Below are positions 3,507 to 13,787 of a DNA stretch of 64,000 nucleotides, piece by piece. Positions within the stretch are counted from its first letter, which is position 1. Each line of letters starts with the position of its first letter. Below the pieces are notes generated by a model. That model was not told the origin of the DNA. It was given only the letters and a program-made list of their open reading frames with translations, and searched no databases. Origin of the DNA: Escherichia coli (lineage in GTDB: Bacteria; Pseudomonadota; Gammaproteobacteria; Enterobacterales; Enterobacteriaceae); NCBI RefSeq assembly GCF_003334765.1, contig NZ_QOWT01000004.1; one strand, given 5' to 3'. Made by a program: the position numbers and the translations under genes.

Positions 3507-3920
3507 TTATGCCCGGACTAGCGCTTTTTCTGAAACAACCATTTTTATTTGCCCCTGGCTGGTGAAGTGTACGCTCATCCTGTGGCTTTTTTGTAGTTGC
3601 TGATAGAGCTCATCAGGTATTGCTAAGCTCTCTGCATATTCTTGCGGCGTATATTGGTAGGCTGCATGATGCTGCTGTTTTTGAAAACGCAGCTTATTGT
3701 ACAGCGCCCAGACAATTAACACGACGGCATTCGCCACTGCCAGCAAAAAATAGAACTGAAGTCGGCTTCTGGCCTCGCTTTGCCAGTAATAACCCGTCAG
3801 CAGATCCATGGCGAATAAGAATATGAACAACGCAAATAATGTCCACAAGATGGTTGTGGCAACATAATCAACCAGTAAACGTACTGGTGATTGTCGGGTC
3901 GTAATAATTAAATTGTTCAT
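3507..3920 (-). CDS. pgaD: PGA biosynthesis protein PgaD (inner-membrane partner of PgaC)
   Basis: 137-aa ORF with two predicted N-terminal transmembrane segments, immediately downstream of pgaC on the minus strand. Confidence 0.9.
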
Positions 3921-3921
3921 A

Positions 3922-5247
3922 TTAACCTCTCAGAATCCCGCGATCGGGACTTACCCAACGGGCGCGTTGCTTTTTAGGCATCAACATGACTCGTGTAAAT
4001 GATACCAATGTCGTTGCCAGGCTCAGCATCCAGAAAATAACCGGGAACCAAATAATCCAGAAAAGCGATGAAGTCAGATTATGCTCATAGCGATTCTCGA
4101 TCATCAGGCTGACAATAAATTGCAGTAAACATAACGTACACAATAATATTCCGGCAGTATGTGTCGCAGCGATATGTGTCAATTCAATATTTAACGGTAC
4201 ACCGGCAAGTTGGACTGCGTAAATAATGAAACCGACCAGGCAGGTGAAGGCCCATATTGTCGTCAGGCAGTATTCAAAAAACAGCGGCCACATTCGAAAG
4301 TTTTCTTTGCGCCACAACCTTGTCATATTTTTGAGGAATACTTCTGCACCGCCCTGAGCCCAGCGCAGGCGCTGTTTCCACAGCCCTTTTAACGTTTCAG
4401 GCATTAATATCCAGCACAGTGCCCGTGGCTCGTAAAAAATCGTCCACTGATTCAACTGCAGCTTCCAGCTAATATCAATATCTTCGGTGATCATATCGTC
4501 ACTCCAGTAACCCACTTCTGCCAGGGCGCTGCGACGAAATGCGGCAATAACACCGGAAACGGTAAATACGTTTCCATAGATACGCTGGGTTCGCTTGATC
4601 AAACCAATAATTGAGGAATACTCGCCAACCTGAATTTTACCCACCAGGGTAGAACGTGTTCGAATACGAGGATTACCGGTTACGGCACCCACACGCGGGT
4701 TGTACAACATCGGTTCCACAATATATGCCGCCGCATCGCGGTCTAATAACGCATCGCCATCAATGCACACCAGATATTCACTTTTCGCCGCGGCAGCTCC
4801 GGTTTTAAGCGCAATGGCTTTCCCCTGGTTTTGCGCCAGATGAATGACCCGCAAATGGGGAATTTGTGCAGCCATGCGATCCAGGATGGCACGGGTTTTA
4901 TCTGTTGAACCGTCATTTACGGCAATAACTTCAATGTTCTCATAACGCTGTGCTAAAGCGGCGTGTATGGTTTCCTCAACGTTTTTCTCCTCATTAAAAC
5001 AGGGAATGATAATGGAGATAGACGGATTATCTTTCAACTGGGGAGCTGGTGCGTTTTCTCCCCACGGCCAGTGGCGTTCACGATAGACCCAGAAATAGAC
5101 GCCGCCAACAATCCACATAATGGACATAAAAAACGGCCAGAAGAAAACGAACCTCATCATCAGTTCACCAGAGTGAAAGTACGCTACGCATAGGGGTATG
5201 CATAACACCAGACATAATATAAAAAACGATACGATGCGATTAATCAT
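3922..5247 (-). CDS. pgaC: Poly-beta-1,6-N-acetylglucosamine synthase PgaC (GT2 glycosyltransferase)
   Basis: 441-aa ORF with GT2-type motifs ([18 protein letters not shown]) and multiple TM segments; overlaps the pgaB stop by 8 nt. Confidence 0.93.
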
Positions 5248-7258
5248 TTTTCGGATACCAGGCTGTTGAAAACTCAGGACGAATAAGGTCTATTTCAGGT
5301 TGGTTATGCAGAAAATTGTCGGGATAATAACCATAGTTTTTCACTCCATTCAGTTGTAATAGGCTCATCCAGTGAGCGAGTTGTTGCGAAGAAATAGCCT
5401 GATGCTGACCATTTTTCTGCCAGTTTTGTGCCTGTAATTCTAAAATAGATTTGTCTTTAGCCTGAGGGATGTTTTTAATTTGATTGGTCAATTGTATTAA
5501 CCATTGGTCAGCCGATTTTTCTGCGACACCTTCCAGATAAGGCATAGCCATAATAGCGGTCCAGTCATAGCTTTTTAGGAAATCAGCATAATTCTGTGCA
5601 AACCAGGCTTCACTTTCAGGTTGTATTACCGGAAGTGCAAAAATATTTCGTGCAGTTTTAATATGTGGACCGCGAATGGCTTTTACGCGCGCACTAAGTT
5701 CTAAAGTGAAGTCAGTTAACGCACGACTTTTAAAGCGGGCCCACTGTTTAAATTGCTCCGGGTTTTGTCGAATTTCGCTCAGACTCCCGCTAAAGCCTGC
5801 TTGCTGATAAGCCGTGATAGCCGGTGCACTGGCATCTTCATAATCTGAAAGCAAAGCATCATCGTGGAACAATATGCCATCAAAAGCAGCATGTCCGGCA
5901 AGATCTTCATATAACATGCCAACTTGTGCTCTGACTCTGTCATCGAAAGGAGAGAGACGGTGATATTGTTCAGGATGAATTTGTGCTTTTTTCTCCCCTG
6001 TTGGTAAGTATTTTACTCGCGTTAATGTGGGATCTAAATCCCAGCTTAATACCGGCATCCACGCATAGATGTTTACACCTGAGCGGGTACGTAATTGCCA
6101 GGCAACCCGACTAAAAATATCTGCTTTCATTGGTAGCAAACGATTTGGAAACCAGACCTCTTTGACCAGCCCATCACCATCGGGATCAGCAAATGCCTGC
6201 AAATACACGGTTGATATTTGCATATCTTTCACCCGCTGAATTAGCACATCAATATTGCGATCCATTTGCTGGAGGTTTTCGTCATAAACGTAATCAAGAT
6301 CGATATGCATTATCCGTTGTGGTGATTTTTCCTGTACGGTAATAATTTGCTGGGCAAACTCTTTTAATGAGGGATTATTGGCGATTAATACCCGCGGAAT
6401 GGAATCCAATTGCGACGCATTTGCCAAACCTGATTCAAGGGTGAAGAACATGTCATAACCGAGTTTTTTTAATTCCTCTATCGCTATGCCATTCGCTTCG
6501 CCATAAGGCCAAACAAAAACGTGTGGATTTACCTCAACCTTTGTACGCAGGTATTCCGTCATTTTTACAGCATCCAGACGAATTCTTTCCCGGTATTCTG
6601 CTGCGGTTTCATACCGTGCGTGGTCAGTAAAATATGCACGATTTACATATACAGGCAATAAGCTGCCGGTGGCATTAGCCTGAATACCGTAGTGAGAATT
6701 CCATGTATGAGAAGCGAGCTCAACGAGCCGGGAACGCGCAACTTCTCGCACTTGTTGCCACGTGGCAAAATATTCTCGATCGACCAACTCATCGCCAAAT
6801 TTTACTTGTTTATCCGCTGGCGTATCGACCCAACTGCCGACGGGGGCCCATACAGCAGGCCACTGGAAGGCCTGAAGAATTGGGAAGACGCGGGTATAAA
6901 AACTCTGGTAGCCGTCATCAAAAGTCAGCACTACAGCTTTTTCCGGTAGCGGTTTTCCTCCTCGATGTGCTTCACGAATTTGAGCAATACTGACCGGTTG
7001 ATAACCGTTCTCGCGCAGCCAGGCAAATTGTTCACGCAGTGCTGATGTCCGCACTGACATAAAACGCTGGTCGGCAGCTTCGTCTTCAACGTTATGCCAT
7101 GAAATCGCTACAAAACCATTATGCGGCCACGGTTGCTCGGCGAGTAAAGATTCGCGATCCTGTGGCGGTATAAATGATGTTCTTGACTGGCTAATGCACG
7201 CGGTGAGCATAATTATACTCACCAGCATCAGGAGATATTTATTTCCATTACGTAACAT
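5240..7258 (-). CDS. pgaB: PGA N-deacetylase lipoprotein PgaB
   Basis: 672-aa ORF with a lipoprotein signal ([13 protein letters not shown]) and a polysaccharide deacetylase-like N-terminal domain; length matches PgaB. Confidence 0.93.
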
Positions 7259-12964: not shown

Positions 12965-13095
12965 GGAAGTGATAGGAAGTGACCAGATAATACATATATG
13001 TTCTGTACTCTCTTGCGCATTTTGATTGTTGACTGAGTAACCAGACAGTTGATGTGCACGATTTCCCCTCGCCCTAACAGACGTGGGCGGGGGCA

Positions 13096-13719
13096 CCCGG
13101 TGTGTGCAATATACGAAAAAAAAGCCCGTACTTTCGTACGAGCTCTTCTTTAAATATGGCGGTGAGGGGGGGATTGACTCGCTTCGCTCGCCCTGCGGGC
13201 AGCCCGCTCACTGCGTTCACGGTCTGTCCAACTGGCTGTCGCCAGTTGTCGAACCCCGGTCGGGGCTTCTCATCCCCCCGGTGTGTGCAATATACGAAAA
13301 AAAAGCCCGTACTTTCGTACGAGCTCTTCTTTAAATATGGCGGTGAGGGGGGGATTGACTCGCTTCGCTCGCCCTGCGGGCAGCCCGCTCACTGCGTTCA
13401 CGGTCTGTCCAACTGGCTGTCGCCAGTTGTCGAACCCCGGTCGGGGCTTCTCATCCCCCCGGTGTGTGCAATATACGAAAAAAAAGCCCGTACTTTCGTA
13501 CGAGCTCTTCTTTAAATATGGCGGTGAGGGGGGGATTGACTCGCTTCGCTCGCCCTGCGGGCAGCCCGCTCACTGCGTTCACGGTCTGTCCAACTGGCTG
13601 TCGCCAGTTGTCGAACCCCGGTCGGGGCTTCTCATCCCCCCGGTGTGTGCAATATACGAAAAAAAAGCCCGTACTTTCGTACGAGCTCTTCTTTAAATAT
13701 GGCGGTGAGGGGGGGATTC
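13096..13719. repeat. Tandem direct repeat array, ~3.4 copies of a 181-bp unit, each carrying the 3'-terminal ~19 nt of serX plus the serX terminator
   Basis: Identical units begin at 13101, 13282, 13463 and 13644 (period 181). Each contains tatggcggtgagggggggatt (the serX 3' end on the minus strand) and the hairpin gcccgtactttcgtacgagc with an A8 tract; the last copy merges into the authentic tRNA. The track shows the same ORF repeated at 181-bp spacing. Confidence 0.92.
13658..13688 (-). terminator. serX intrinsic terminator (proximal copy)
   Basis: On the minus strand: stem gagcucguac / guacgggcuc (one G-U pair) followed by U8, 12 nt after the tRNA 3' end. Identical copies occur in each upstream repeat unit. 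Confidence 0.7.
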
Positions 13720-13787
13720 GAACCCCCGATACGTTGCCGTATACACACTTTCCAGGCGTGCTCCTTCAGCCACTCGGACACCTCACC
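13700..13787 (-). tRNA. serX: tRNA-Ser (long variable arm, class II)
   Basis: Reverse complement reads GGTGAGGTGTCCGAGTGGCTGAAGGAGCACGCCTGGAAAGTGTGTATACGGCAACGTATCGGGGGTTCGAATCCCCCCCTCACCGCCA: 88 nt with D-loop, TPsiC arm GGTTCGAATCC and a CCA end. Anticodon assignment (GGA) is from memory. Confidence 0.9.

Follow-up and report, generated by a model that had tools for sequence, protein, structure and literature searches.

The phoH-serX interval of Escherichia coli with pgaABCD-dgcT and ymdE-ycdU: a probable layered accessory segment that includes a remnant of island OI-47

Introduction

The segment from pgaD to ycdU lies between phoH and the tRNA-Ser(GGA) gene serX of Escherichia coli. It is analysed here in a stretch of 64,000 nucleotides (nt) from the assembly GCF_003334765.1 (contig NZ_QOWT01000004.1), which is called the window and to which positions refer unless another locus is named. 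Several described systems are close to this locus. Goldstone et al. 2016 (PMC4951805) presented pgaD-ycdU as an apparent genome island flanked by efeB/phoH and ghrA/ycdXYZ, and they reported ymdE homologues of 945 bp. Island OI-47 of O157:H7 EDL933 comprises z1528-z1556 and has a published size of 31,727 bp (PMC8565820). The islands known at serX/serW have 14-bp direct repeats of the tRNA end at their borders (PMC3064760). As regards the pga genes, the synthesis of poly-beta-1,6-N-acetylglucosamine (PGA) is responsive to cyclic di-GMP, and HmsT, the Yersinia homologue of YcdT (DgcT), regulates the hms (pga) genes (PMC5464674, PMC4951805). Echeverz et al. 2017 (PMC5464674) reported broad agreement between the pga trees and phoH and made the case for vertical descent accompanied by losses; gene order was not part of that analysis.

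The window has the 3' third of a fabD-like gene, ycdU, the spacer behind it and the left junction at the end of dgcT in common with OI-47. Unlike that island, it is devoid of the EAL protein, the winged-helix regulator, the fimbriae, the two-partner secretion genes and the lipid/polyketide-like cluster, and it retains only a non-functional fabD-like stump and ycdU. The segment resembles OI-48, OI-43, SpLE1 and SRL-PAI at serX/serW in the tRNA gene, the side of that gene, the accessory nature of the DNA and the atypical composition, whereas those islands carry a P4-family integrase and 14-bp direct repeats (PMC3064760) and the segment has neither. The repeats beside serX resemble RtT of the tyrT operon (RF00391) in that they follow a tRNA gene in tandem and that each unit closes with a 3' segment of the tRNA; they differ in being attached to tRNA-Ser(GGA) instead of tRNA-Tyr, with a score of 46.3 bits against 45. 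With the integrase-free replacement hotspots of E. coli and the genome island of Goldstone et al., the locus shares conserved flanks, alternative cargoes and patchy presence. OI-47, OI-48, RtT and the island status have already been described, and the present results refine known biology. The additions are a two-layer anatomy with exact junctions, the pga/DUF2726 alternative and a comparison of the locus across genera.

Based on these comparisons, the segment is probably a layered accessory segment filling a cargo hotspot, which extends from the phoH terminator to the RtT repeats and serX and recurs across the Enterobacteriaceae. In the first layer, pgaDCBA and the divergent dgcT would have been placed beside phoH early in the genus Escherichia, and afterwards exchanged, partly recombined and sometimes lost, with a 1.2-kb DUF2726 cassette taking the same slot. 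The second layer would be a later insertion of the ~33-kb OI-47 between the 3' end of dgcT and the RtT array. An IS3-associated deletion in a K-12-like lineage would have removed 31.7 kb of OI-47 and left the fabD-like stump and ycdU, and the window would be a rare derivative that has lost IS3 too. The RtT units are tandem copies of the tRNA 3' end and its downstream region, older than all cargoes, and the cargoes would have been turned over by homologous recombination in the conserved flanks and by illegitimate joining, with no tRNA-specific integrase.

Gene Content and Architectures in E. coli

All 5426 complete E. coli genomes matched a part of positions 3000-15000, and the window is E. coli. 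The features of the segment and its borders are as follows.

3458-3506, no strand assigned: left boundary, the phoH terminator (…GAGCCCGGGCGAACCGGGCTTTGTTTT); DUF2726 strains diverge after 3500
3507-3920, minus strand: pgaD, from the open reading frame (ORF) and RefSeq names on identical sequence
3922-5247, minus strand: pgaC, on the same basis
5240-7258, minus strand: pgaB, on the same basis
7267-9690, minus strand: pgaA, on the same basis
9691-10276, no strand assigned: AT-rich divergent regulatory region between pgaA and dgcT, with a G + C content (GC) of 0.340
10277-11635, plus strand: dgcT (ycdT), predicted membrane diguanylate cyclase, from the ORF, the GGDEF model and the GGEEF motif
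11622-11981, plus strand: ymdE as annotated, with a GTG start at 11622 inside the end of dgcT
11978-12964, plus strand: ycdU, membrane protein, from the ORF and the O157 gene order
12965-13095, no strand assigned: spacer, the right end of OI-47 before the RtT array, co-linear with the O157 locus (L084) up to its position 35076
13096-13699, minus strand: RtT repeat array of one partial and three full 181-bp units
13700-13787, minus strand: serX, tRNA-Ser(GGA), with its 3' end toward the segment

The four co-linear pga genes encode a porin, a deacetylase, a glycosyltransferase and PgaD, and the Pfam domains in pga homologues are PgaA_barrel, Polysacc_deac_1/GHL13, Glycos_transf_2 and PgaD. By gene order and domain content, pgaDCBA is the predicted operon for PGA synthesis and export. 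DgcT matched the GGDEF model TIGR00254 with 156.9 bits (cut-off 37.4) and has a GGEEF motif at residue 359, which agrees with the GG(D/E)EF pattern of a predicted diguanylate cyclase. An earlier reading of the letters alone, made with no database searches (the sequence-only reading), had named this content correctly: the pga operon, DgcT with GGEEF, a truncated fabD-like ymdE and ycdU.

The genome comparison revealed four architectures.

Type A, the present window: phoH-pgaDCBA-dgcT-ymdE-ycdU-RtT-serX
Type B: phoH-pgaDCBA-dgcT-serX-ghrA, without ymdE, ycdU and the extra repeats
Type C: phoH-DUF2726-serX-ghrA, without pga and without dgcT
O157: ~32 kb of additional genes between dgcT and ycdU

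The breakpoints in window coordinates are 3500 (left, type C), 11601 (left, type B), 11641 (O157) and, on the right side, 13597-13617. The spacer at 12965-13095 is missing from both type B and type C strains. The modules were found in the complete E. coli genomes with the following frequencies.

pgaABCD: 4410 of 5426 (81%)
DUF2726 cassette: 1052 of 5426
ymdE-ycdU: 2675 of 5426 (49%)
Lipid/polyketide-like cluster of the O157 island: 391 of 5426

The pga and DUF2726 counts sum to 5462, and the two are therefore nearly exclusive alternatives; about one in five complete E. coli genomes is without any pga operon and has the DUF2726 gene instead. Subtraction of counts, as distinct from typing of each genome, puts the shares of the architectures at ~19% for DUF2726, 32% for pga-dgcT only, 42% for the stump and 7% for the full island.

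A DUF2726 strain (L001) matches the window up to 3500/3501, and the pga and DUF2726 cassettes both begin directly after the T-run of the phoH terminator. In this strain the cassette spans 3502-4736 of its own locus (1.2 kb, GC 0.403) and replaces positions 3501-13616 of the window. Its alleles are 90-100% identical within E. coli, and E. albertii (L008) carries a DUF2726 cassette with the same phoH-side junction as type C E. coli. The search of the DUF2726 protein against Pfam, NCBIfam and PADLOC gave no informative family and no defence-system match.

The dgcT end separates the two layers. In type B strains (L002; B2-type) as well as in a sister Escherichia species (L005), the stop codon of dgcT directly adjoins an RtT unit at '…CTGTCGCCAGTTGTCGAACC…', and type B is therefore ancestral for this end. 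The last ~12 codons of dgcT (from 11601) in the window and in O157 differ from those of type B and L005; because the 3' end is altered in this way, OI-47 came later, at the dgcT/RtT boundary.

The ymdE-ycdU Pair as the End of OI-47

The comparison with O157 showed that the window equals the O157 arrangement (L084) minus exactly 31,747 bp. Up to position 11641 the window corresponds to L084 up to 1798 with 99.4% identity, while positions 11640-13170 correspond to L084 33546-35076, co-linear and with 98.6% identity, so that both island junctions are near-identical and co-linear. The genes behind dgcT in O157 are, in order, an EAL-domain gene, a gene for a winged-helix regulator, an SDR gene, a fimbrial operon and a two-partner secretion pair. 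The next cluster contains acpS, SDR, FabZ-like, acyl carrier protein (ACP), aminomethyltransferase and two ketosynthase genes, parts of an ABC transporter and a LolA-like gene. The series ends with a 942-bp ACP S-malonyltransferase gene and ycdU. Two features of the window belong here.

11641-11642, no strand assigned: deletion junction, where the 31,747-bp interior of OI-47 is gone and where K-12 has IS3 at the exact point
11642-11981, plus strand: ymdE, the 3' ~340 bp of the 942-bp fabD-like ACP S-malonyltransferase gene, a pseudogene stump

The deletion ends 600 bp into the malonyltransferase gene, and ymdE is therefore the 3' third of that gene. In the 290-position FabD model, ymdE covers only positions 196-264, and RefSeq labels it 'incomplete; missing N-terminus'. 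For ycdU, no family was matched in Pfam, NCBIfam or PADLOC. The ymdE-ycdU pair represents the terminal 1.5 kb of OI-47 as it stands in O157. Both genes are leftovers of a 32-kb island and not partners of pga, which is relevant to studies of candidate fitness genes, e.g., in mastitis isolates.

At the deletion point K-12 reads GCGGC-ATTT-[IS3]-GTG-CCTGGCAC, and no target duplication is present. The left flank of its IS3 consists of 4 nt of OI-47 left-end sequence (ATTT) and the right flank of 3 nt of the malonyltransferase gene (GTG). An IS3 arranged in this way, with no target duplication, is the pattern of an IS3-associated deletion. The window has neither the IS3 of K-12 nor the 7 nt that flank it. 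Its exact IS-free junction occurs in 4 of the 5426 complete genomes and a nearly identical one in ~13 more, and ~11 genomes retain leftovers of 27-190 bp at the IS3 point. Such varied small leftovers suggest repeated, independent loss of IS3. The likely order of events is insertion of OI-47, IS3-linked deletion and rare loss of IS3.

Mobile elements also carry homologues of this part of the island, as the sequence-only reading had proposed to look for. The tail of the cluster (ketosynthases, ABC transporter, LolA-like, FabD-like and YcdU-like genes) is present on an Enterobacter IncFII plasmid, in a segment flanked by IS elements, and the same tail, ending in the FabD-YcdU pair, was found on a Rahnella megaplasmid. 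Apparent plasmid matches with at least 95% identity to ycdU and pgaC were discarded as mis-binned chromosome fragments.

RtT Repeats and the tRNA Gene serX

The repeat beside serX is a 181-bp tandem unit present in 3.4 copies at 13096-13718, and the copies are 100% identical to each other. Each unit carries the terminator region of serX and closes with the final 19 nt of the tRNA, a 19-mer that was found four times against 0.02 expected. Three matches to RtT RNA (RF00391) scored 46.3 bits, barely above the gathering score of 45, and RefSeq annotates 'RtT sRNA' (small RNA) at the serX locus. The tRNA-derived direct repeats of the sequence-only reading are real and belong to RtT (RF00391), whereas their placement after the tRNA gene holds only in the transcription direction of the tRNA itself: the array lies between ycdU and serX.

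RtT-like units in one to four copies stand beside tRNA-Ser(GGA) in most of 80 species loci, which were anchored on GhrA with a flank of 10 kb each and mapped with the window genes. They occur beside serX in Citrobacter, Salmonella, Enterobacter, Klebsiella and other genera without the segment, and Rfam confirmed RtT beside serX in S. arizonae, Enterobacter, Leclercia and Trabulsiella. Since these genera never had the segment, the units are not an integration scar and represent an old property of the tRNA locus. Here the RtT units are older than the cargo, and tRNA-like repeats should not be taken as scars of integration. The full identity of the copies in the window, together with one to four copies elsewhere, suggests recent or ongoing amplification or gene conversion.

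Two tRNA-Ser(GGA) genes ~3 kb apart were observed between phoH and ghrA in Enterobacter, Klebsiella, Leclercia, Lelliottia and related genera (L031, L034, L036, L042, L051, L052, L062 and others), often with RtT units at each. Between the paired genes lie genes for a LysR regulator and a YcaC-like hydrolase and an unnamed gene of 363 aa.

The sequence-only reading had interpreted the repeats and the neighbouring tRNA gene as the signature of entry at a tRNA site. In its full form, this explanation states that the whole of pgaD-ycdU is one old island, put at serX by a tRNA-specific integrase that was lost later, and that the repeats are the remains of attachment sites. The position is as described in that reading: the segment lies on the 3' side of serX, whose 3' end points toward it with the 604-bp RtT array in between, and serX is a proven attachment site for islands of the OI-48/SpLE1/SRL type (PMC3064760). 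The last 14 nt of serX are the attachment core of OI-48/SpLE1-type islands. In O157 an integrase island starts directly after TGGCGGTGAGGGGG, carries a tyrosine integrase and ends at an intact tRNA, a structure that matches the published 14-bp direct repeats; serX is a true attachment site. We considered the distal RtT pseudo-site as the location of this O157 island and ruled it out, as the right end of the island adjoins the intact serX with no RtT between. One-step entry is also favoured by the atypical composition (GC 0.436 vs 0.507), by presence that differs between strains (81% for pga, 49% for ymdE-ycdU) and by a pga module that stands 3' of tRNA-Thr in Atlantibacter.

The traces expected of such an entry are missing. 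The tRNA ends, searched as a 19-mer with up to three mismatches and a 14-mer with up to two, were found only at 13157, 13338, 13519 and 13700, that is, within the RtT array and at the tRNA gene; no tRNA-derived repeat lies near 3500 on the phoH side or near 11641 at the dgcT/ymdE junction. The absence of an integrase remnant, which the sequence-only reading had already noted, was borne out: tblastn with three integrases against positions 3000-14000 gave matches at chance level only (E > 0.1) with a working positive control, and the RefSeq annotations of the segment contain no integrase gene. Among ten species with large inserts that were tested, none had an integrase beside serX. Moreover, the pga-dgcT, DUF2726 and OI-47 cargoes cut the distal RtT unit at three different positions and not at the attachment core, and these different ends fit recombination at a hotspot rather than site-specific integration. 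The two modules part cleanly and differ in distribution, and RtT units adjoin serX in genera without the segment. Entry of the pga-dgcT and OI-47 layers by a tRNA-specific integrase is unlikely, and a single old island delivered in this way appears improbable. The repeats do not serve as a signature of integration, and the claimed entry at the tRNA site is not shown by these data.

The phoH-serX Interval across Species

In the 80 loci, 10 kb upstream of ghrA were visible per locus. The gene order efeB-phoH…serX-ghrA-ycdX-ycdY-csgG recurs in Escherichia, Citrobacter, Salmonella arizonae/diarizonae, Enterobacter and Klebsiella, and also in Raoultella, Leclercia, Lelliottia, Kluyvera, Atlantibacter and others. 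Most of these species loci retain the csg genes; several loci of Klebsiella, Raoultella and Kluyvera yielded no csgG. The content of the interval between phoH and serX is variable. In five loci, one from Escherichia and four from Citrobacter, phoH is at most 250 bp from serX, and in other loci the two are separated by unrelated genes that take up as much as 9.7 kb or more. This cargo forms 156 protein clusters, 124 of them singletons, and includes fimbrial and sugar-dehydrogenase genes as well as an RHS element and a helicase akin to defence proteins. Some loci are rearrangement breakpoints, with ruvB, yegS or hisD beside serX, and not islands.

The pga/dgcT genes were found at one of the 80 GhrA-anchored loci (L005) and ymdE/ycdU at none; pgaDCBA-dgcT was absent from all other such loci in which phoH or serX-side sequence was visible. 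The presence/absence comparison that had been proposed with the sequence-only reading therefore gave no strict vertical conservation. The idea of a horizontally acquired islet fits in so far as the segment varies within E. coli and is absent from this place in other genera, and it has to be modified in that there are two layers with separate histories.

Within Escherichia, pga is next to phoH in several lineages (L005, L093), and the locus L006 retains, behind the phoH terminator, 41 nt of the 3' end of pgaD as a remnant. The position of pga beside phoH is old within Escherichia. One Escherichia-like assembly (L093, Logan SRR6186591, positions 8061-17013) has putP-efeUOB-phoH-pgaDCBA-dgcT followed by cadCBA and not by serX-ghrA, which indicates a chromosomal rearrangement with a breakpoint at this site.

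The pga Operon in Other Genera and Its Alleles

Outside Escherichia, the operon was located at four other chromosomal sites, with Enterobacter and Lelliottia taken together, and on plasmid segments flanked by IS26, as listed below.

Citrobacter sp. Awk 4: between a chemoreceptor gene and dctPQM, on a contig different from that of its serX locus
Enterobacter cloacae: between rnb-fabI and a MASE4-GGDEF gene, followed by AraC and sap genes
Lelliottia: P2-like prophage, AraC, MASE4-GGDEF, small ORF, pgaABCD, type VI secretion system effector genes
Atlantibacter: AraC, GGDEF, small ORF, pgaABCD, then tRNA-Thr(CGT), proA and proB
Klebsiella pneumoniae: pgaABCD near cutA-dsbD
IncX1 qnrS1 plasmid (L101, NZ_CP080068.1, 1458-9776): complete pgaABCD between two IS26 copies

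The PgaC of this plasmid is 67% identical to the chromosomal PgaC. The same pgaC was also seen on many E. coli and Enterobacter plasmids of 39-136 kb. A context look-up in Citrobacter sp. NCU1 (P0024) returned nothing.

Between any two of the window, L005, L093 and Citrobacter Awk 4, PgaA is 74-81% identical, in contrast to GhrA, which in the window is 95% identical to that of L005 and 81% to that of Citrobacter Awk 4. Compared with L005, the segment is a mosaic, with a nucleotide identity of 90-97% in phoH-pgaD-pgaC, 70-78% in most of pgaB-pgaA, 90% at the 5' end of pgaA and 66-72% in the intergenic region and the N-terminus of dgcT. Relative to the alternative Escherichia haplotype, nucleotide identity in the pgaA-dgcT intergenic region is 66-79%. 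A divergent pga-dgcT haplotype, ~83% identical to the common one, is carried over positions 5593-10792 of the window by ~80 E. coli genomes (e.g., L096, E. coli EA7). It matches the sister species L005, and its identity profile is a mosaic that changes abruptly at recombination breakpoints in pgaB, pgaA and dgcT.

According to Echeverz et al. 2017, pgaABCD is ancestral in the Enterobacteriaceae and was lost many times, and on this explanation the segment would be core DNA that is AT-rich by chance. The similar topologies of the pga and phoH trees (PMC5464674) speak for it, as do real losses in Escherichia (the pgaD remnant in L006 and truncated operons) and the right-hand neighbours that Enterobacter and Lelliottia have in common, which suggest vertical descent in that clade. 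It is opposed by the occurrence of pga in at least five chromosomal contexts and on plasmids. In no locus outside Escherichia does pga occupy the phoH-serX interval, and in several of them phoH directly adjoins serX. The operon of Citrobacter Awk4 is as near to that of E. coli as other Escherichia alleles are, yet it occupies another locus. Judged from gene order and allele comparison, these data do not fit strict vertical descent at one site, and we consider purely vertical inheritance with losses an improbable account of the segment. The synteny qualifies the published view of pga as mainly a matter of vertical descent and loss, as the operon has moved between chromosomal sites and onto plasmids.

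Turnover of the Cargoes

The comparisons show the module boundaries, the deletion, the alternative cassettes, the differing sites of pga in other genera and the age of the repeats. For the layered segment, we infer turnover by homologous recombination in the flanks and illegitimate joining, without a tRNA-specific integrase, as the probable mode, given the junctions and gene orders described above. Several points weigh against this account. Recombination in the flanks is inferred and was not observed as such, and the proposed direction of the events and their timing were deduced by parsimony from a limited sample. The 80 loci did not include the GTDB representatives of E. coli, E. fergusonii and S. 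enterica, and the architecture shares come from subtracted counts. Delivery by an integrase may have taken place with its traces wholly decayed, and pga does have neighbours of this kind in two other genera: a prophage integrase in Lelliottia and, in Atlantibacter, a tRNA gene whose 3' side faces the operon. The deep divergence of PgaA and PgaB could arise partly from the fast evolution of envelope proteins, and the tree congruence reported by Echeverz et al. also belongs on this side.

A more speculative proposal, to which we give a small chance, is that pgaABCD and a MASE4-GGDEF gene form a recurrently mobile module with no integrase of its own, which would tend to settle in recombination-prone DNA at the 3' ends of tRNA genes, as at serX in Escherichia and at the tRNA-Thr gene beside proA in Atlantibacter. 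RtT arrays might then act as landing pads or buffers, so that cargo swaps spare the tRNA.

Base Composition

The higher AT content of pgaD-ycdU relative to its flanks, which the sequence-only reading had judged by eye, was confirmed by counting. GC over 3507-13095 is 0.436 vs 0.507 in the rest of the window, the lowest-GC stretch of 9.6 kb in the window starts at 3501, and non-overlapping 500-bp windows inside and outside the segment differ in GC with p = 1.6e-7 (Mann-Whitney). GC per gene is 0.386-0.473 in the segment vs 0.51-0.54 for efeB, phoH and ghrA, and GC at third codon positions (GC3) is 0.39-0.50 vs mostly 0.50-0.64 elsewhere in the window. The codon measures used were GC3 and the codon-usage distance relative to the remaining window genes; this distance is raised for pgaB, pgaA, dgcT and ycdU and not for pgaC. 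The three measures per gene (GC, GC3 and codon-usage distance) agree for pgaB, pgaA, dgcT, ymdE and ycdU, while pgaC is ordinary. GC is uneven along the segment, with 0.460 in pgaDCBA, 0.340 in the pgaA-dgcT intergenic region, 0.386 in dgcT and 0.413 in ymdE-ycdU. The RtT array (0.568) and the tRNA gene (0.614) are both GC-rich, and the array therefore lies outside the AT-rich DNA.

The csg genes (17.8-20.5 kb) equal the segment in AT-richness, and composition alone therefore proves little. The sliding comparison of GC and GC3 was non-uniform, as anticipated, with the reservation that the codon usage of pgaC is ordinary and that csg is equally AT-rich. A low GC could also be due to function, i.e., membrane and secreted proteins and an AT-rich regulatory region bound by nucleoid proteins, rather than to foreign origin. 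This is in line with the equally AT-rich csg genes nearby, which are conserved in most species loci, and with dgcT and ycdU, which encode membrane proteins and have low GC at codon positions 1 and 2. Against it, GC3 and codon usage are shifted too, and variable presence together with differing genomic sites shows accessory status independently of composition. Function is insufficient as a full explanation of the low GC, and we hold this alternative to be very improbable.

The second AT-rich stretch of the window, 17846-20541 with GC 0.32-0.43, comprises csgDEF, the csgD-csgB intergenic region and csgB, and it shows that DNA other than accessory DNA is also low in GC in this neighbourhood. An Rfam match to the ES056 sRNA lies upstream of csgD (19387-19478, minus strand). 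The sole other 1-kb stretch with GC < 0.42 is at ~35001-36000. The Yersinia antisense sRNA Ysr251 of Rfam was matched with 189 bits at 3259-3452 (minus strand), antisense in the 3' end of phoH. The same match occurs at the Citrobacter, Salmonella, Leclercia and Trabulsiella loci, and the conservation of the phoH coding sequence may be its sole cause.

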